Made by a program: the position numbers and the translations under genes. From Candidatus Bathyarchaeum sp. (lineage in GTDB: Archaea; Thermoproteota; Bathyarchaeia; Bathyarchaeales; Bathyarchaeaceae), in NCBI GenBank assembly GCA_020344315.1, contig CP070820.1, forward strand, positions 109,605-173,604: a DNA stretch of 64,000 bases, read 5' to 3'. The notes below the pieces were generated by a model that saw nothing but the letters and a program-made list of their open reading frames with translations, was not told the origin of the DNA and searched no databases. Of this stretch, positions 48,131 through 59,023 are shown one piece after another (position 1 is the stretch's first letter; each line of letters starts with the position of its first letter).

Positions 48131-48685
48131 TTAGAAGGCAAGCTTCGCCAATTCTTCGCATCTAGACTTAACTGTTTCATAGACCTGTTTTCGGAGGTTT
48201 TCTCCAGACAACTGTGCCATTCGCAGCAGTTCCATCTTTTTGGATAATTCTCGGTCTCCTAAGGAGCGAATCCAGAGTTCGAAGTCTTTTCGCGGGACAT
48301 GAAATTCGATGGACTTCAAATCGACCTCTTGGATTTTGTCAACGAAGTCTTTGAGGCTGTCTGCGTGAAGGCCCGAGTACTGGTTGAGATCGTAGTAGAA
48401 ATGGAAGGCTCTTTCTATGGAGACGGGGCTCAGAATGTTTGATGCCAGTTTCTTGTCTACTTTCGGCAGCCCTAGCGCTTTTTTGCCTAGATTTGTTATG
48501 GCATAGTAGTGTTTCTGGGGCACAGAAACATATTTTGCTTTTATGAGACCTAGCAAGTATCCCATTGTCGAGGAAGAATTCAATTCTGTTTTTTCGGCTA
48601 TCGCTTGGAGGGTTATCGGCTTTCCTGCAGCCCACATTGCTCCTAAAATTTTTCCCCTGATTTTGCTCGCACTCATCCTCTGCAC
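48131..48685 (-). CDS. Putative regulator: N-terminal winged helix plus a C-terminal domain shared with the GH57 enzyme
   Basis: N-terminal KILGAMWAAGKPITLQAIAEKTELNSSSTMGYLLGLIKAKYV is wHTH-like. The C-terminal ~94 aa aligns by eye with the C-terminus of the 54404-55975 protein (FxFxY..SGL..SL..F....DL.SI.FHV.R.DFE.W.R..G..L...M). Confidence 0.55.
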   Translation of the reverse strand: MQRMSASKIRGKILGAMWAAGKPITLQAIAEKTELNSSSTMGYLLGLIKAKYVSVPQKHYYAITNLGKKALGLPKVDKKLASNILSPVSIERAFHFYYDLNQYSGLHADSLKDFVDKIQEVDLKSIEFHVPRKDFELWIRSLGDRELSKKMELLRMAQLSGENLRKQVYETVKSRCEELAKLAF

Positions 48686-51860: not shown

Positions 51861-52181
51861 TTAATTTTCTCTGATGAGGCACTTTCCGCCTGTTGGACAA
51901 TACTTGTTGGCGTGATTCTCAACTGCTTTGAAGAGTGCACCGACAGTTTCTTGATTGGCGGAATAGATTCGCTTCTTTCCCTGTCTCTCAATGTAAACGA
52001 AATTGCATTCTAGTAGTGGTTTCAGGTTATGGGAGATCATGCTCTGTTCCTGCCCAAGAGAATCAGCGAGCTCAGTTACGCTCATCGGTTTTTTCATCAA
52101 TTTTTCTAATGCAGCTAGTCTTGTAGGATTCGAGAGATTTACAAAGAACTTGTAACAGGTTTCGCTTAATCCCTTCTTCAT
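51861..52181 (-). CDS. ArsR/SmtB family transcriptional regulator
   Basis: LSNPTRLAALEKLMKKPMSVTELADSLGQEQSMISHNLKPL wHTH. C-terminal Cys pair CPTGGKC. Confidence 0.8.
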   Translation of the reverse strand: MKKGLSETCYKFFVNLSNPTRLAALEKLMKKPMSVTELADSLGQEQSMISHNLKPLLECNFVYIERQGKKRIYSANQETVGALFKAVENHANKYCPTGGKCLIREN

Positions 52182-52333
52182 GACTACTTCCCTCTTTTAG
52201 CCTTTTTATGAATTATTCTTCATATGTATTATCGTTCATATAAAACCATCGGTTACTTGGAGAAACGAAAACGCACACCCATCTTATCTTCGGTTCCTTC
52301 TTTTAACAAATATTCGCAGTCTAGACAACAGTC

Positions 52334-52341
52334 TTATATAG
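52334..52341 (+). promoter_or_regulatory. TATA box (TTATATAG) for the YHS mini-gene
   Basis: Its proximal edge lies about 31 nt upstream of ATG 52372, implying a very short or absent leader. Confidence 0.4.
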
Positions 52342-52371
52342 AATCCTTCACCTATTGAGTGATGAAAGATT

Positions 52372-52515
52372 ATGCCTAGAGATCCAGTCTGTGGCGTCGT
52401 TCTAAACGAAAAGACGGGAAAATATAAAATCACGCACGACGGAGAAAAATATTATTTCTGCAGTGTTAAATGCAAGAAGAAATTCAAGAGGAACCGAAGC
52501 AAATTTGCGAAATAG
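52372..52515 (+). CDS. YHS/TRASH-domain mini-protein (47 aa), missing from the ORF track
   Basis: Hand translation MPRDPVCGVVLNEKTGKYKITHDGEKYYFCSVKCKKKFKRNRSKFAK. It has the DPVCG...YYFCS..C..KF signature of YHS/TRASH metal-binding domains. Confidence 0.75.
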   Translation: MPRDPVCGVVLNEKTGKYKITHDGEKYYFCSVKCKKKFKRNRSKFAK

Positions 52516-52584
52516 CCTCTAAAGAAGTACTTTCATAAAAACGAGAAAAATAGACCCGTTCTTTTCCAAAGCTCTTGGGTATAT

Positions 52585-54351
52585 TTACAGGTAGGCTTCT
52601 GATGCGTATCTTCGCATCATTCTGTGGCTGTTGAAGTAGTAGGCAACCTTTCCAATCGAGTTCTCCATCATTCGTATCCAATCATCCCGGTTTCTGTAGA
52701 ATTTGGGGACAACCACATACTCCAATTTGCTGTATAATTCTGTGATCTCCCGATATCTCCTCTCAGCCTCTTCCAAATCCTCTTTCGGAGAAGGACCAAT
52801 AGCCCAACCCGTAACACCCTCAACACAACCCTCCACCCACCATCCATCCAAGACACTGAAATTAATCACCCCATTATGCGCTGCCTTCATTCCGCTTGTG
52901 CCCGAAGCCTCATAAGGCGGAAGAGGAGTATTCAACCAGACGTCTACGCCAGAAGTGAGCTTAGCCGCCATCTGAAGATCATAATTTTCCAAATAGACAA
53001 TCTTCATCATACCCTTCAGATTCTGTTTCATCTCATGAATCTCCTCGATTAAGCGTTTTCCCATCCAGTCCCTAGGATGGGCTTTGCCCGCATAAATCAC
53101 CTGAATCTCTCCCACCCGGTTGATTTCTTCAAGCCTCTTTATGTTTGAAAATATCAGATTCGGTCTTTTGTAGCCGGTGGACCTTCGAGCAAAACCTAGA
53201 GTAAGCACATCACGATCAAATCGGAGACCGGAAAGTTCCCGAACATAACGTATGAGAGCTTCTTTCGCCTCCATATGAGCCAGCCAAATCTCCTCGTCAG
53301 GAATGCTGTCCACCCTGACAAGCAATTCAGGTTCGTTTGCCCATCCGGGCAGATACTTGTCATATAGCCTTCTGAAACTCTCGCAAGTCCAAGTGAAAGA
53401 GTGGACACCGTTTGTTATAGCTGAGATATTATAACCAGGAAACAGAGTCAAGGAAAATTCCTTGTGTCTTTTCGCAACACCATTCACGTATTTGCTTAGG
53501 TTAAGTGCCAGACGTGTCATATTTAGCCGGTCTTTGCCTCCAAGCTTCTTCAGGGTTTCTAGAGGAATTATTTCACCCAGCATTTCTTGGACGAGGTTAT
53601 ACGAGAATTTGTCGTGACCCGCCTCTACTGGAGTGTGAGTGGTGAATATGCAGAGGTCTCTTACCTCATCCAGCTCCATACCGTTCTTTGCCAGCAACTC
53701 TAAGGTGAGGAGGCAAGAATGTCCCTCGTTCATGTGATATTTTCCTATTTTGAAGCCTGCAGCCTCAAGCATTTTCACCCCGCCGACTCCCAAAACGATC
53801 TCTTGCTTCAACCTATACTGCTCATCCCCACCATACAGGAAAGAAGTAATCTCTCTGTCTTCCGGGGTGTTGCCTTCGACATCTGTGTCAAGAAAAAGGA
53901 CAGGAACCAATCCTCCTGTGGGACTCTGGTAATCATGAAGCCAAGCTTTCACTCTGACTTTTCGATTCTGTATATTCAACTCGACTTGGGTTGGCAATTC
54001 AGTCATTAATTTGGACGGTGTCCACTCGTCCGGGCGCTCAATCTGTTTTCCGCCTCTAAGCTCCTGTCTCACATACCCCTTTCTGCTGACAAGAGTGACT
54101 CCCACCAACGGAATCTTGAGGTCAGCGCTGGACTTTATCATGTCACCAGCCAAAACCCCTAATCCTCCGCTGTAGGTGTGAAAATCGTTGTTCAACCCGA
54201 TTTCCATGGAGAAATAGGCTATTTTCTTTCCCCGCAAGAAAGCACGTTTACAGTATTCACCGCAGAAATAGTATGTTTTTCCCCTCACTTCAGCCTTGAA
54301 TTCTTCCTTAGTTTCAGTTAAAGGCATCCCGCAGACAGGGTCTCTGATCAT
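52585..54351 (-). CDS. glgP: Alpha-glucan (glycogen/maltodextrin) phosphorylase with an N-terminal YHS/TRASH domain
   Basis: N-terminus MIRDPVCGMPLTETKEEFKAEVRGKTYYFCGEYCKRAF is followed directly by IAYFSMEIGL...YSGGLGVLAGD and EASGTSGMKAAHNG (PLP-Lys region). Start at ATG 54351 (GAGGT 11 nt upstream). The ORF-track TTG is at 54396. Confidence 0.85.
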   Translation of the reverse strand: MIRDPVCGMPLTETKEEFKAEVRGKTYYFCGEYCKRAFLRGKKIAYFSMEIGLNNDFHTYSGGLGVLAGDMIKSSADLKIPLVGVTLVSRKGYVRQELRGGKQIERPDEWTPSKLMTELPTQVELNIQNRKVRVKAWLHDYQSPTGGLVPVLFLDTDVEGNTPEDREITSFLYGGDEQYRLKQEIVLGVGGVKMLEAAGFKIGKYHMNEGHSCLLTLELLAKNGMELDEVRDLCIFTTHTPVEAGHDKFSYNLVQEMLGEIIPLETLKKLGGKDRLNMTRLALNLSKYVNGVAKRHKEFSLTLFPGYNISAITNGVHSFTWTCESFRRLYDKYLPGWANEPELLVRVDSIPDEEIWLAHMEAKEALIRYVRELSGLRFDRDVLTLGFARRSTGYKRPNLIFSNIKRLEEINRVGEIQVIYAGKAHPRDWMGKRLIEEIHEMKQNLKGMMKIVYLENYDLQMAAKLTSGVDVWLNTPLPPYEASGTSGMKAAHNGVINFSVLDGWWVEGCVEGVTGWAIGPSPKEDLEEAERRYREITELYSKLEYVVVPKFYRNRDDWIRMMENSIGKVAYYFNSHRMMRRYASEAYL

Positions 54352-54403
54352 AACTAAAAACCTCTTGACTCGCACCTTCTCTTCGTTGTTAACCAAGCCA
54401 TTT

Positions 54404-55975
54404 TTAGCCGTCCGTAGTGATTTTTTTCAATTGTTTTATTCTTTTTTCAGTTGCGGCTAGAACTTTCTTGCGTATAGCTTCCCCTTCCAACTTTTTCATT
54501 GCCCTGCTAATTTTTGCCATCTCGTCAGCTAGTTTGTTTTCGCCGACAACTTCGCGTAGCCAGCGTTCGAAATCTCCTCTTTCCACATGGAACCAAATAG
54601 AGCTAAGGTCAATGGTCTTCAGTGTTGAATAAAACTCGTTTAAGCTGTGAACTGTTAAACCAGAGGATCGTGCGAATTCGTAAGAGAAGGTGAATCCCAT
54701 TCCGGCTGGAAGACGCCTTAGCACCCTTTTTGCTGCCAGTTCTGGTTTTTCCAGCTCTACAAGGATTCTGGCTTCGAGGTCAGAGAGGACTCTTGAATAT
54801 ACCGCAAAGGCTTCGACCGGACTGCCCATGGAACTGAAGTAGTTGTGTACGTCTCCAGGTCCTCCTCCCTTTATACTGAGGTAGTAGAGGTGGTCGCTCA
54901 TCTGAAGATAACGCCATAAACGAATCAGCTCCTTGTCACCTATTCCCTTCACCAACTGTCCCAGTTCCTTCAGAGAGTCGTAACATATGTTCTGCATTGG
55001 ATTGCCAATCCATGCGCTGGGGTCTCGTTCAATGTCAGCCCATGAGACCGTGTTGTACTCATGAACGTCAATTTCACCAACTGGATCGTGCCTGCTAATG
55101 GCTTCGGAGGGTGTTCTCCAGTGAAGGTTGTGCCATTTGTTCACCTCGCCGGGTAACCATCTTAAGAATTCATGGATACCGGATTCTGACCAGTGGTGTT
55201 CCCCAAAGGTTTCGTAGTCAACGAAAATAACTATAACTTGTCCTTGGGTTGCAGCTAGCCAGCGGGCGTATTTGGTTGCGTCCAGGGGGTACTCGTTCCA
55301 CCATGGGGAGGAGAAACGGAATCCTATATCGTCGGAGAGGCGGTAGTTGCGAAGCAATACACGAAAGTTAGAGTTTTTGGCTTTGTAGACGTAGTTGGGA
55401 CTTCTTCCCAAGAGAATCCTCTCAATTCCTTCTGTAACTGTGCCTTTGTAGCCCATTCCCTCCATTGTCTTAGCTATCGCATTATTGTATAGTAACTCGG
55501 TGTTTTCGATAACCTTTGGTTCATAGTTGAAGAGGTCCTTCATGAGCTGGCGATGCATTTGAACCTGTTCCACGAATTCTGAGCGATCTGTCCCGTGAAG
55601 GCTGGCTAACGAGTGGTAGTATGTTTCCTCCATGAATTCAACGCATCCGGTTTCGGCGAGTTGTTTGAAGGACTCGATTAGGTCTGGGTTCCAGCGTTCG
55701 CACTGTTCAAGAAAGACTCCGGATATCCCGTAAGTTACCTTGAACTTTTTCCGTTCTCTCCTGCACTCTTCAATCTGTTCCAAGATTATGCTGTTTGCTG
55801 GAAAGTAACATTTCCTTGCGGCTCTCTCGAAAACGTAACGGTTAAGCCCGTTGTCAAAATATAGGTCAAAAAGGCCCTTTTTTGTGACTTTTCCCTTAGA
55901 CAGTAGGTCAGAGTGAAAATTACGGTTCAACCTGAATGGCTGATGAACCTCAAGCATTAGACAAATGTCTGTCAT
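54404..55975 (-). CDS. Glycoside hydrolase family 57 enzyme with an extra C-terminal domain
   Basis: MTDICLMLEVHQPFRL and the following GH57-type catalytic region. The last ~99 aa align with the C-terminus of the 48131-48685 regulator. Confidence 0.8.
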   Translation of the reverse strand: MTDICLMLEVHQPFRLNRNFHSDLLSKGKVTKKGLFDLYFDNGLNRYVFERAARKCYFPANSIILEQIEECRRERKKFKVTYGISGVFLEQCERWNPDLIESFKQLAETGCVEFMEETYYHSLASLHGTDRSEFVEQVQMHRQLMKDLFNYEPKVIENTELLYNNAIAKTMEGMGYKGTVTEGIERILLGRSPNYVYKAKNSNFRVLLRNYRLSDDIGFRFSSPWWNEYPLDATKYARWLAATQGQVIVIFVDYETFGEHHWSESGIHEFLRWLPGEVNKWHNLHWRTPSEAISRHDPVGEIDVHEYNTVSWADIERDPSAWIGNPMQNICYDSLKELGQLVKGIGDKELIRLWRYLQMSDHLYYLSIKGGGPGDVHNYFSSMGSPVEAFAVYSRVLSDLEARILVELEKPELAAKRVLRRLPAGMGFTFSYEFARSSGLTVHSLNEFYSTLKTIDLSSIWFHVERGDFERWLREVVGENKLADEMAKISRAMKKLEGEAIRKKVLAATEKRIKQLKKITTDG

Positions 55976-56233
55976 GGTTGACCACCATTCACTTGAGCCC
56001 ATGTAATCTTAAGAGTCATATTTGATCCACACATTAGGCGGTACAAGCATTATCTAAGTTTATCCTCTTTATTAGGACATTTACCAAGCCGTTTCCACAA
56101 ATCTCCCAAGAAATTCTGCAGTGTTTTCTACTTTTAAAATTTCAGAATGCCACATTCACATGAGATTTACAGTATTCTCACGTAGGTTTTCGGGAGACAA
56201 AAGAATTTAGAAAATTTAGTAATTGCTTTCATA

Positions 56234-56512
56234 TTATTCGAAGGTTTCAGTATATTTACAGCTTGGATAATTGCTACATCCAAGAAACATGTTAAAGCCT
56301 TTTCTTTCAACAAGATAACCATCCTCACAAATCGGACAAATTTTAGTTTTATAACTACAAACCTCATTTGAACAGTAATAAAGATGTGCTTCTTCTAAAA
56401 CACGCAAAAAACCATCCGAACATTTAGGGCAAACTGTTGGTTTGTAAAAACAATAAGGAAAATTGTTACAAGAACACCTATGATTCCATTGATGAAGAAA
56501 CGCGACAAACAT
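56234..56512 (-). CDS. Small protein with two topoisomerase-type C4 zinc ribbons
   Basis: CPKCSDGFL...CSNEVC and CPICEDGYLVERKGFNMFLGCSNYPSC (zf-C4_Topoisom-like). The start is uncertain: 56512 or 56548. Confidence 0.5.
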   Translation of the reverse strand: MFVAFLHQWNHRCSCNNFPYCFYKPTVCPKCSDGFLRVLEEAHLYYCSNEVCSYKTKICPICEDGYLVERKGFNMFLGCSNYPSCKYTETFE

Positions 56513-56523
56513 TAATTGCTTTG

Positions 56524-56781
56524 ATGGCGCAACAAGGATACGTTCCAAAGGAAGAACTTGACAAAGTAAAAAACGATGCTGAAAAGAAAATTAATAATTA
56601 TAAAAAGGAAAGCGATAGGTAGAAACGTATCGCTAACGACCGTCTTAAAGAGCTTGAAGATTTTAAGGAGCAGATTAGAAAAAAGCGTATTGCTGAAGAA
56701 AAAAAACGTGACGACCAAATAGACAAGAAGGCAGGCAGCCTTATAGCGGAGATAACAAAGCGGAAGTTAATCTCCAACTGA
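56524..56781 (+). pseudogene. Lys/Glu-rich coiled-coil ORF interrupted by an in-frame TAG at 56620-56622
   Basis: MAQQGYVPKEELDKVKNDAEKKINNYKKESDR-TAG-KRIANDRLKELEDFKEQIRKKRIAEEKKRDDQIDKKAGSLIAEITKRKLISN. The 52 codons after the TAG contain no in-frame ATG/GTG/TTG. Confidence 0.35.
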
Positions 56782-56926
56782 TACCCCCTTAGGCCCAGCA
56801 ATCTTAAAAGATGATACCCTTATCATCCGTAAAAAATTTTGCCCTTGGGAAAGCGCGCGCATCTCCAAGTTGTACTAATCATTTCAGATAGAAAATGTTA
56901 TTCCACGCCTTTTTAAAATTTCTTAT

Positions 56927-59023
56927 CTACGAATATATAAGAGTCTCTAGGACTTTTCTTTCGTGGGGAGGCCTCTTCAAAGCTACGTCCTCAACGTACG
57001 CTCTCAACGGTTCAGCTACGCTCCAGGCCTGAGCAATACAGCCTCTGGAAATATGCGGCTCATTACCATCAAAGATTTCACCGACTGTTCCTAAGCCAGC
57101 TCGGTAAATCTCTTCACGAAAGAGAGGTTGCAGAAACTTTTTGAAACCGAAGTTTCGCCAATGTGCCTCGTGATTTTTTGTTTTTAAGAAAGCTGAGGTA
57201 AAGGGGCCAATAAGCCACGCCCAAACCGTGCCGTTGTGATATGCACTATCGCGATGACCCCGATCACCGATGTATTCTCCTATATATCGGAGATCATCGT
57301 TAGGCAGAGTTTTAAGCCCGTACTTTCCCCACAATTCTTTCCAGACTATCTCAACAATCTTCTCTTCTCTTCCTCTGTCAAGAATTGGAAAGTCCAAGGA
57401 GGCAGCAATCACCTGATTTGGCCTTAACGATGAGTCAGCACCATCCTCAGATACCACATCGAAAAGGAATCCTTTCTTGGGGTTCCAAAACTTTTGTGAA
57501 AAGCTCTCTCTAACCTTCTCAGCCATATCGTGATACTTTTCTGCTTTGTCCTCATGATTGAAGTTCTTTGCTAGCAACTGCATAAGTTTCAGGGCGTTAT
57601 ACCACAAGGCTTGAATCTCAACTGCCTTCCCATTTCTCGGTGTAACAAAACGGTCAATCGTAGCGCCATCCATCCAAGTCAATTGTGAACCGTGAGCAAT
57701 CAATCCATCTTCTTCCATGTGAATACCGAAGATGGTTCCTTCAACGTGATGATCAATGATCTCGATTAATGTTTCCCATAAATTTTCTTGAACAAATTCG
57801 AAATCACCAGTATACTTGAGGTATTGAAGAACTGCATTGAAGAACCATAAGGTGGCGTCCACTGTATTGTAGATCGGTTCATCTTCAGCCTTGTCTGAGA
57901 AGCGATTGGGTATGATGCCGTTTTGGCAATAGCGCTCAAAAGTCAGCAATATCTCCCGTGCATCCTTAAACCTTCCCGTGACAAGGGTTAATCCAGGCAG
58001 GGAAATGAGGGAGTCCCTTCCCCAATCATCAAACCAATGATAACCAGCAATCACTGACTTCTTTCCGGTTGAGGCTCTCTTTACAATGAAAGAGTCAGCC
58101 GCTTGGATGAGCCACTTCAACCAGTCTTCCATTTCTAGGTCAGCGTGGTGTTCCCGAACCTCTTCCAACAAACCTTCTCGTCGTTCTAACTCCTGACGAT
58201 ATAACAGATCAATATCTTCCATTTCTTGTCCAAAATATGAAAATAGGCTCTGGGCTTCTTCCTCGCTTTTTCCAGCTGCTGCAAGGACAAAAAATCTTTT
58301 CTTCTCTTTAGGATCAACAGAAAACCGGAAAAATCCGGGTCTAAAGTAGTCGTCGATACTGCTTTCGTTTCTTGAGGCATCAGTCCTGAAGAATACTCTT
58401 TTGATCCACCAGTTCTCCTCCACGAAAGCCCCGTCGTTTCCTGAGGACATGATTAGGGCTGATAGTGGAGCAGAGGGTTGAATTATCACGCCTTTTCCGT
58501 AGCGCTTCTGAATAAATCTCCACGCCAACCTTTCCTTGGTCGTTATGTGGTAGATGTGCCGCGAATTGACGAGGGGCGAGACGCGGATAGATAGCCTTTT
58601 GTCTAGTGGGTTAGAGACTTCGTAGATTACTATGGTCGCGTTCTTTCTGTGGGGCATAAAAATCGTCTTCTGAAGGCGGACACTATCCACAGCATACTTG
58701 TAAGTTGGAAGGGAATCAAGGATAAAGTCGGAGAGAAAACGGTGTCCTTCAGGGTGTATGACATCCCTGAACTCGTTTGCCCCTAGGGCGTAGGTTTTGT
58801 TTCCGATTTTTATTTCTTCGTCAAGCTTTGTTAGTAGAACCCAGCGATTTACTGGAGGATTAAAGGCTGCAATAAGGAGACCATGATATTTTCTTGTGTT
58901 GATTCCCAGAATGGTTGAGGAAGTATAGCCGCCTAAGCCGTTGGTTACGATCCATTCTCTTCGAAGAGCTTCATTGACATTGGAGAGAACACTCCGTCCA
59001 AGACGCATTCTAGGCAAATCCAC
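56927..59023 (-). CDS. Archaeal-type glycogen debranching enzyme (amylo-alpha-1,6-glucosidase family)
   Basis: N-terminus REWIVTNGLGGYTSSTILGINTRKYHGLL and the C-terminal (alpha/alpha)6-type region ...AYHNGTVWAWLIGPF... are typical of GDE_N plus GDE_C proteins. Confidence 0.85.
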   Translation of the reverse strand: MDLPRMRLGRSVLSNVNEALRREWIVTNGLGGYTSSTILGINTRKYHGLLIAAFNPPVNRWVLLTKLDEEIKIGNKTYALGANEFRDVIHPEGHRFLSDFILDSLPTYKYAVDSVRLQKTIFMPHRKNATIVIYEVSNPLDKRLSIRVSPLVNSRHIYHITTKERLAWRFIQKRYGKGVIIQPSAPLSALIMSSGNDGAFVEENWWIKRVFFRTDASRNESSIDDYFRPGFFRFSVDPKEKKRFFVLAAAGKSEEEAQSLFSYFGQEMEDIDLLYRQELERREGLLEEVREHHADLEMEDWLKWLIQAADSFIVKRASTGKKSVIAGYHWFDDWGRDSLISLPGLTLVTGRFKDAREILLTFERYCQNGIIPNRFSDKAEDEPIYNTVDATLWFFNAVLQYLKYTGDFEFVQENLWETLIEIIDHHVEGTIFGIHMEEDGLIAHGSQLTWMDGATIDRFVTPRNGKAVEIQALWYNALKLMQLLAKNFNHEDKAEKYHDMAEKVRESFSQKFWNPKKGFLFDVVSEDGADSSLRPNQVIAASLDFPILDRGREEKIVEIVWKELWGKYGLKTLPNDDLRYIGEYIGDRGHRDSAYHNGTVWAWLIGPFTSAFLKTKNHEAHWRNFGFKKFLQPLFREEIYRAGLGTVGEIFDGNEPHISRGCIAQAWSVAEPLRAYVEDVALKRPPHERKVLETLIYS

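Follow-up and report, generated by a model that had tools for sequence, protein, structure and literature searches.

Glycogen phosphorylases are known to be controlled by phosphorylation, by adenosine monophosphate (AMP) and other metabolites, by HPr binding and by changes of oligomeric state, and to our knowledge no metal-dependent control of these enzymes has been described. A free small metal-binding protein encoded near a larger protein that carries the same domain in fused form is seen in CopZ with the metal-binding domains of CopA and in the Sulfolobus TRASH proteins CopM and CopT, and in pairs of this kind the tagged partner is a pump or a regulator. The sole YHS-tagged enzyme that we found to have experimentally established metal switching is the class IIIc adenylyl cyclase of Mycobacterium phlei, in which a YHS domain that has one Asp and three Cys and is joined to the catalytic domain by a very short linker turns the enzyme on with 1-10 µM copper (Linder 2015, PMC4626032). 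Here we describe, in a stretch of 64,000 nucleotides from Candidatus Bathyarchaeum sp. (GenBank assembly GCA_020344315.1, contig CP070820.1, positions 109,605 to 173,604; hereafter the window), an alpha-glucan phosphorylase that begins with a YHS/TRASH finger, and a convergent neighbouring gene for a free-standing YHS mini-protein of 47 residues. The finger shares with that of the cyclase both the set of one Asp and three Cys and the shortness of the linker, but it is N-terminal rather than C-terminal, the enzyme it is attached to is unrelated, and its metal response is a prediction. In contrast to the CopZ/CopA-type pairs, the protein that bears the tag in this case is a soluble enzyme of catabolism, and the tail of the mini-protein is basic and L24e-like, its gene not adjoining copA.

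The larger protein comprises 588 residues. Pfam profiles identify residues 3-40 as YHS (PF04945; E 4.3e-10, 39.9 bits, the cut-off being 30.3) and the rest as Phosphorylase (PF00343), and NCBIfam recognizes the protein as a member of its "alpha-glucan family phosphorylase" model TIGR02094 (547 bits, cut-off 191.7), with residues 44-587 matching profile positions 1-598 of 600. The mini-protein is also detected by PF04945 (E 2.7e-12, 46.9 bits), and the alignment of the fused with the free domain is gap-free over Met1-Phe38, with 42-47% identity. Thus, the three domain-level proposals of a preliminary description made from the letters of this DNA, namely a YHS domain, its fusion to a phosphorylase in a single open reading frame and the recurrence of the same domain in the neighbour, are all upheld, with the YHS profile scoring above its gathering threshold in both proteins. 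The best 120 homologues of the fused protein are 580-600 residues long, and nearly all of them combine PF04945 and PF00343.

The catalytic portion has the hallmarks of its family. An AlphaFold2 (AF2) model of the whole protein (mean predicted local distance difference test, pLDDT, 89.4; predicted template modelling score 0.90) has as its closest solved structure the glycogen phosphorylase of Segatella copri (ScGP; 9L6I), with a Foldseek query-normalized TM-score of 0.86, E 3e-50 and 34% identity; the remaining top structural matches are all glycogen or maltodextrin phosphorylases, and a phmmer comparison with ScGP gives E ~1e-97. Lys489 aligns with the pyridoxal 5'-phosphate (PLP) lysine of ScGP, Lys609, which is position 629 in the tagged chain (PMC12912991), and 66 aligned archaeal and bacterial fusions show no variation in the EASGTSGMK motif to which it belongs (E481-K489). 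The family score, the PLP-lysine motif and the two-Rossmann GT-B phosphorylase fold are thereby all those of TIGR02094/GT35, and by sequence and model the protein looks like a catalytically competent alpha-glucan phosphorylase. Its predicted alpha-1,4-glucan phosphorolysis agrees with the glycogen-cluster context, in which it is accompanied by a GH57 enzyme and a debranching enzyme. ScGP, a clade 2 glycogen phosphorylase (PDB 9L6I/20YR; PMC12912991), has the TIGR02094-type core, the PLP lysine and the catalytic motifs in common with it, but assembles into AMP-regulated pentamers and decamers, carries no metal finger and possesses about 90 further N-terminal residues and a C-terminal beta-sheet domain, both of which are absent from the window protein, where the YHS finger is found instead.

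Within the same 66 aligned fusions, Asp4, Cys7, Gly8, Phe29 and Cys34 are invariant, and Pro5, Cys30 and Phe38 are at least 90% conserved. The cysteines of the fused finger and of the mini-protein have an identical spacing of C7-X22-C30-X3-C34, which as read fits the TRASH motif, reportedly C-X19-22-C-X3-C. Bathyarchaeial variants include one with Cys in place of Asp4 (CPVCG) and another with Asp in place of Cys30, which are exchanges of the kind expected at putative metal-ligand positions. The fused finger covers profile positions 2-38 of the 47 in PF04945, the PxxY tail being absent. In the AF2 model it is formed by a beta-hairpin (residues 19-28) and a helix (32-40), at pLDDT 81-88, and the helix leads through a five-residue link (Leu39-Lys43) into strand beta1 (43-47), which lies ahead of the GGLG loop.

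The fusion has a wide phyletic spread. Of the 121 Bathyarchaeia species genomes in a class sample, 22 encode this phosphorylase, about 12 in the fused form and about 11 in an unfused form of ~560 residues, with one tentatively unfused case (G105) preceded by Ns. The two forms coexist in a genome of the same genus (G090), and genome G093 has two fused copies and one unfused. In a tree of the catalytic core, rooted on one distant outgroup, the archaeal fused and unfused forms constitute a single clade (Shimodaira-Hasegawa-like approximate likelihood-ratio support 97), within which the state changes at least five times. As unfused sister enzymes exist and the state switches repeatedly, the finger is accessory to catalysis. 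Beyond the archaea, diverged fusions with a longer linker were recovered when the first 110 residues were compared with 1.84 billion representative proteins, and a degenerate pattern at the DNA level that took in the CGM, FCxxxC and AYF[ST]ME motifs matched at least 119 species genomes; among the matches listed, the junction is in frame in 118 of 119 bacterial loci, and the carriers include Nitrospira moscoviensis, Kuenenia, Brocadia, Gemmata, many Acidobacteriota and Myxococcota, and plasmids of Nostoc and Tolypothrix. A protein atlas likewise holds matching archaeal and bacterial clusters of YHS plus Phosphorylase. The bacterial long-linker forms (e.g., Nitrospira moscoviensis, NZ_CP011801, and Kuenenia) have the same domain order, subfamily and D/C/C/C set, and are 48-56% identical to the window protein over the full length. 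They differ from it in their complete 47-position YHS domain with a PxxY tail, a linker of ~20-25 residues and a total of 610-620 residues, in contrast to the shortened finger and tight junction of the archaeal form, which here stands in a glycogen cluster. Hence, the view in the preliminary description that such a fusion is unusual is not borne out, since it is widespread and visible in databases in Bathyarchaeia and many bacterial phyla. The same description had asked whether the architecture might prove both common and already characterized: common it is, with at least 118 bacterial loci, but we found no paper on a YHS/TRASH-phosphorylase fusion in the open-access literature. Proteins of 240-840 residues with four to six tandem YHS repeats (P0132, P0139, P0144, P0262, P0269) were also present among the representatives.

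We clustered the neighbours of the 119 listed bacterial loci, each spanning at most 8 kb, and found recurrent genes for metal efflux: a P1B-type ATPase starting with YHS and HMBD in 24 loci, CusA-type resistance-nodulation-division (RND) pumps in 19, outer-membrane efflux proteins (OEP) in 11 and HMBD-bearing CusB-type adaptors in 8. At least one of the P1B-ATPase, CusA, CusB and OEP genes is found in 44 of the 119, distributed over at least 11 phyla and including Nitrospira moscoviensis and the Nostoc and Tolypothrix plasmids. A comparable association exists within the archaea, for in the complete genome CP070759 (L150 in our numbering of loci), whose phosphorylase is 76% identical, the genes are arranged on one strand as PadR-copA-YHS48-pfkB-YHS-phosphorylase; in locus L154 a gene for a 48-residue YHS protein is followed by a rhodanese gene, one further gene and then the phosphorylase. 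As side observations on these neighbourhoods, in L152 a P-type ATPase comes after a fused phosphorylase, and in L156 (G090:C1:606500-622000) genes for a P2-type cation ATPase and a Na+/H+ exchanger immediately precede an unfused paralogue, behind which stands a GT4/GT5 glycogen-synthase-like gene. Pairing with ion pumps in general, beyond copper pumps, seems to be a habit of this phosphorylase subfamily. In addition, a PfkB-family sugar kinase lies between the copA-YHS pair and the YHS-phosphorylase at 5881-6840 of L150, and phosphofructokinase (PF00365) genes adjoin the bacterial fusions in 8 loci among the matches listed.

These observations lead us to posit, at a probability of roughly one half, that glycogen phosphorolysis is gated by the finger, acting as an accessory module that senses a metal, probably Cu(I). 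A sensing role is favoured because catalysis does not need the finger, because copper pumps are neighbours in many lineages and because the copper-activated M. phlei cyclase offers a precedent. Under such a mechanism, the first 40 residues would act as an accessory finger with Asp4, Cys7, Cys30 and Cys34 as putative ligands, sensing Cu(I) or possibly Zn(II); metal binding would order the finger, and helix 32-40 would pass the change on to strand beta1 and the GGLG active-site loop. Given that the helix is joined to these elements by a link of only five residues, metal occupancy could alter the activity or the oligomeric state, and the release of glucose-1-phosphate from stored glucan would thereby be tied to metal status. 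Binding of a metal, the choice of metal and its consequences for activity are all inferences, and, as judged from sequence and analogy, metal-dependent control of the phosphorylase is plausible. Several points weigh against this proposal. The window genome and its near relatives display a context of glycogen catabolism and hcp/arsR rather than copper efflux; the bacterial set was chosen by the fusion itself, with the enrichment of pumps judged against general expectation only; structural zinc could just as well occupy a site of three Cys and one Asp; the final ~9 positions of the YHS profile have no counterpart in the archaeal finger; and close relatives have Leu in place of Met9 in the CGM motif, which is therefore not a required copper ligand.

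The alternative that fares best, though we regard it as doubtful next to metal sensing, is that the finger is a permanently zinc-loaded structural module, which replaces the DUF3417-type N-terminal helical region and serves stability or the oligomeric state without any sensing. L24e and the phenol-hydroxylase YHS region, its probable relatives in fold, serve as structural zinc sites, a variant in one genome (G038) has a classical CxxC...CxxxC set, and the link between finger and core is very short and rigid, all of which would suit such a module. Moreover, the alignment of the window protein to ScGP starts only at about ScGP residue 92, leaving out the N-terminal ~90 residues as well as the beta-sheet domain at the C-terminus, and it is the helical domain that assembles the ScGP pentamer (PMC12912991). 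Nevertheless, unfused forms of ~560 residues without any N-terminal domain persist in the same clade, which implies that the core needs no replacement domain, and a purely structural role leaves the recurrent clustering with copper and heavy-metal efflux genes unexplained.

A further explanation concerns the neighbouring gene, which is real, conserved and under purifying selection. About 50 clusters of mini-protein homologues were found at 62-96% identity, all of the named ones being from Bathyarchaeia, with D4, C7, C30 and C34 invariant among them; the rate of nonsynonymous differences (pN) is 0-0.10 against a synonymous rate (pS) of 0.30-0.96, and the structural model has a pLDDT of 85.5. 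Foldseek searches with this 47-residue model gave only weak matches (E > 0.1, as expected at this size) to the phenol-hydroxylase YHS region 2INP, L24e, RLP24 and the ZMYM5 TRASH domain 2DAS. By these weak structural and sequence matches, the mini-protein probably belongs to the same small fold class as the L24e and TRASH-FCS treble-clef fingers. It is, however, not ribosomal protein L24e itself, as it scores 20.6 against a cut-off of 27 in Pfam and 29.7 against 73 in NCBIfam, and a true L24e gene (70.8 bits) is found elsewhere in the genome. A second identity that we considered and rejected is that of a copper chaperone of the CopZ/CopM type: no copA was found near the mini gene within the window, and the protein is of another sequence type. 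The CopA-linked mini-proteins of G090 and L150 share 68% identity between them and 40-43% with the window mini-protein, and they have an acidic tail of the PxKY type where its own is basic.

Under the explanation in question, the finger would be where free YHS mini-proteins dock or hand off metal, delivering or removing it or competing with the finger, much as CopZ interacts with the metal-binding domains of CopA. This is a chaperone version of the interaction handle suggested in the preliminary description. It is compatible with sensing, but we think it unlikely. Free YHS genes lie at most three genes from a fused phosphorylase in three distinct arrangements, namely the convergent type-2 gene of the window, copA-YHS48-pfkB in L150 and the YHS48-rhodanese-x arrangement of L154, the latter two with a type-1 gene. 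With 1-3 mini-YHS genes per genome of ~1,500 genes, this proximity by our estimate exceeds chance, but it is evolutionarily labile. The finger and the mini-protein are, furthermore, the only two YHS domains in the assembled part of the genome; this count applies to an assembly that is 88% complete and in which 65 runs of 100 N link 66 contigs into the "single contig", such that other YHS genes may be unassembled. Outside the window, at C1:1168980-1169957, a 326-residue open reading frame matches the first 196 residues of the 814-residue copA of G090 at 65% identity before running into an N100 spacer, and the assembly of this genome may simply be missing the copper pump together with any YHS gene that follows.

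The history of the adjacency bears on the same question. The mini gene is convergent to the 3' end of the phosphorylase gene in the window and in L148, L149 and L153, having been overlooked by gene callers in the latter three, and L159 retains a 62-nucleotide relic of its 3' half at the same position. These occurrences overturn the idea that the adjacency is a private accident of the window genome. In the phosphorylase tree its carriers fall on both sides of a genus-level clade, indicating that the adjacency is ancestral in that clade and was lost several times. Such losses speak against a hand-off: the mini gene is absent from this spot in L157, L158, G090 and G098, in the last two of which the orthologue instead adjoins the aIF2-alpha gene and a ribosomal-protein gene, and a mini-YHS gene near the phosphorylase is absent in the other seven fused-gene genomes of the class sample. 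Likewise, the window mini-protein is of the basic-tailed, L24e-like kind and not of the CopA-linked type. The earlier suggestion that it competes with the finger accordingly found no direct support. In its fullest version, the hand-off would have the mini-YHS protein load or strip Cu(I) on the finger and so switch on glucan breakdown, with glucose-1-phosphate fuelling P-type and RND pumps under metal or ion stress. We regard this version as improbable, and the broader notion that the glucan reserve is mobilized when ion pumps need energy, which derives from the repeated pairing with ATP-driven ion pumps, as speculative.

The last alternative, that translation starts near Ile44 and the YHS-like stretch is an untranslated leader turned into protein by annotation, draws on nothing more than the general start-site uncertainty of metagenome-assembled genomes and can be set aside with near certainty, given that no in-frame ATG, GTG or TTG was seen on direct reading between Met9 and the core start at Ile44, that the same junction of finger and core recurs in more than 200 sequences, that a Shine-Dalgarno (SD)-like motif precedes the ATG at 54351, and that the finger is maintained at the protein level. 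With regard to the latter, codons 2-42 are under purifying selection, with pN at 0.03-0.12 and pS at 0.19-0.98 across five related genomes, values similar to those of the catalytic core. A TTG at 54396 was rejected as the start; homologues of 588-589 residues have N-termini reading M-x-R/K-D-P-V/I-C-G, corresponding to the same start as the ATG at 54351, and together with the GAGGT motif and the purifying selection they make the upstream TTG unnecessary. The start-site and selection evidence thus also removes the reservation, voiced with the initial proposal, that translation might begin downstream of the YHS segment, and places the finger in the translated N-terminus.

Table 1. Features of the YHS-phosphorylase locus, with positions counted from the first nucleotide of the window.
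Feature	Positions	Strand	Basis
ArsR-family regulator, divergent from the mini-YHS gene; follows hcp in relatives	51861..52181	(-)	PF01022; synteny
Conserved ~50-nucleotide segment with ATGAA/TTCAT repeats	52204..52254	.	blastn, 81-92% identity to the hcp-upstream region of five relatives
47-residue YHS mini-protein with basic tail (type 2), convergent with the phosphorylase	52372..52515	(+)	PF04945, homologues, purifying selection, model
69-nucleotide spacer between the converging genes; oligo-T runs on either strand probably serve as their terminators	52516..52584	.	Sequence reading; terminator function predicted
YHS-tagged alpha-glucan (glycogen/maltodextrin) phosphorylase, coding sequence for 588 residues, stop codon included	52585..54351	(-)	Open reading frame, Pfam, NCBIfam, model
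Codons 1-40, YHS/TRASH finger short of the full profile (Asp4, Cys7, Cys30, Cys34)	54232..54351	(-)	Pfam, conservation, model, purifying selection
SD-like GAGGT, 9 nucleotides upstream of the ATG, within the 52-nucleotide gap after the GH57 stop	54361..54365	(-)	Sequence reading; function predicted
GH57 glucan enzyme with C-terminal DUF5752, directly upstream of the phosphorylase	54404..56002	(-)	PF03065, E 5e-86; conserved GH57-phosphorylase order
Archaeal-type glycogen debranching enzyme (GDE), first gene of the cluster	56927..59023	(-)	GDE_N and GDE_C; TIGR01561, 498 bits

The phosphorylase gene is the last of a GDE-GH57-phosphorylase cluster (Table 1), which by its predicted products is a glycogen-breakdown cluster, and synteny indicates that the GH57-phosphorylase order is kept in relatives. 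DUF5752 was detected both in the C-terminus of the GH57 enzyme (54404-54710) and in a small winged-helix regulator (48131-48685) 6 kb away (E ~1e-7 and 6e-8), meaning that an enzyme of the glycogen cluster and a regulator share this domain of unknown function. The spacer between the GH57 and debranching genes (56003-56926) encodes a 104-residue protein with a double zinc ribbon (Zn_ribbon_Top1); the same slot varies among relatives, being empty in L149, taken up by a collagen-repeat gene in L148 and filled with different genes in L157 and L158. At the opposite end, relatives have a gene for the hybrid-cluster protein (hcp; Prismane, ~546 residues) between the phosphorylase/mini-YHS genes and arsR, which is missing from the window genome and from L148. 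The conserved repeat-bearing segment that precedes hcp in relatives here lies directly upstream of arsR, facing the start of the mini-YHS gene, and judging by the intergenic sequence (52182-52371) the loss of hcp looks like a clean deletion that spared the operator or promoter.

Were the finger merely a structural zinc site, our findings would amount to a minor note on domain architecture. Yet, a conserved predicted metal finger on a phosphorylase is distributed over one class of archaea and more than twelve phyla of bacteria, often in copper-resistance clusters or plasmids. If it is a sensor, it would represent a new regulatory input to the use of carbon reserves and a means of paying for metal efflux. 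If, in addition, a chaperone of the same fold were to act on it, metal homeostasis would be tied post-translationally to energy reserves in Bathyarchaeia and many bacterial phyla. Such control would also bear on the management of carbon stores in the Bathyarchaeia, which are abundant archaea of sediments.

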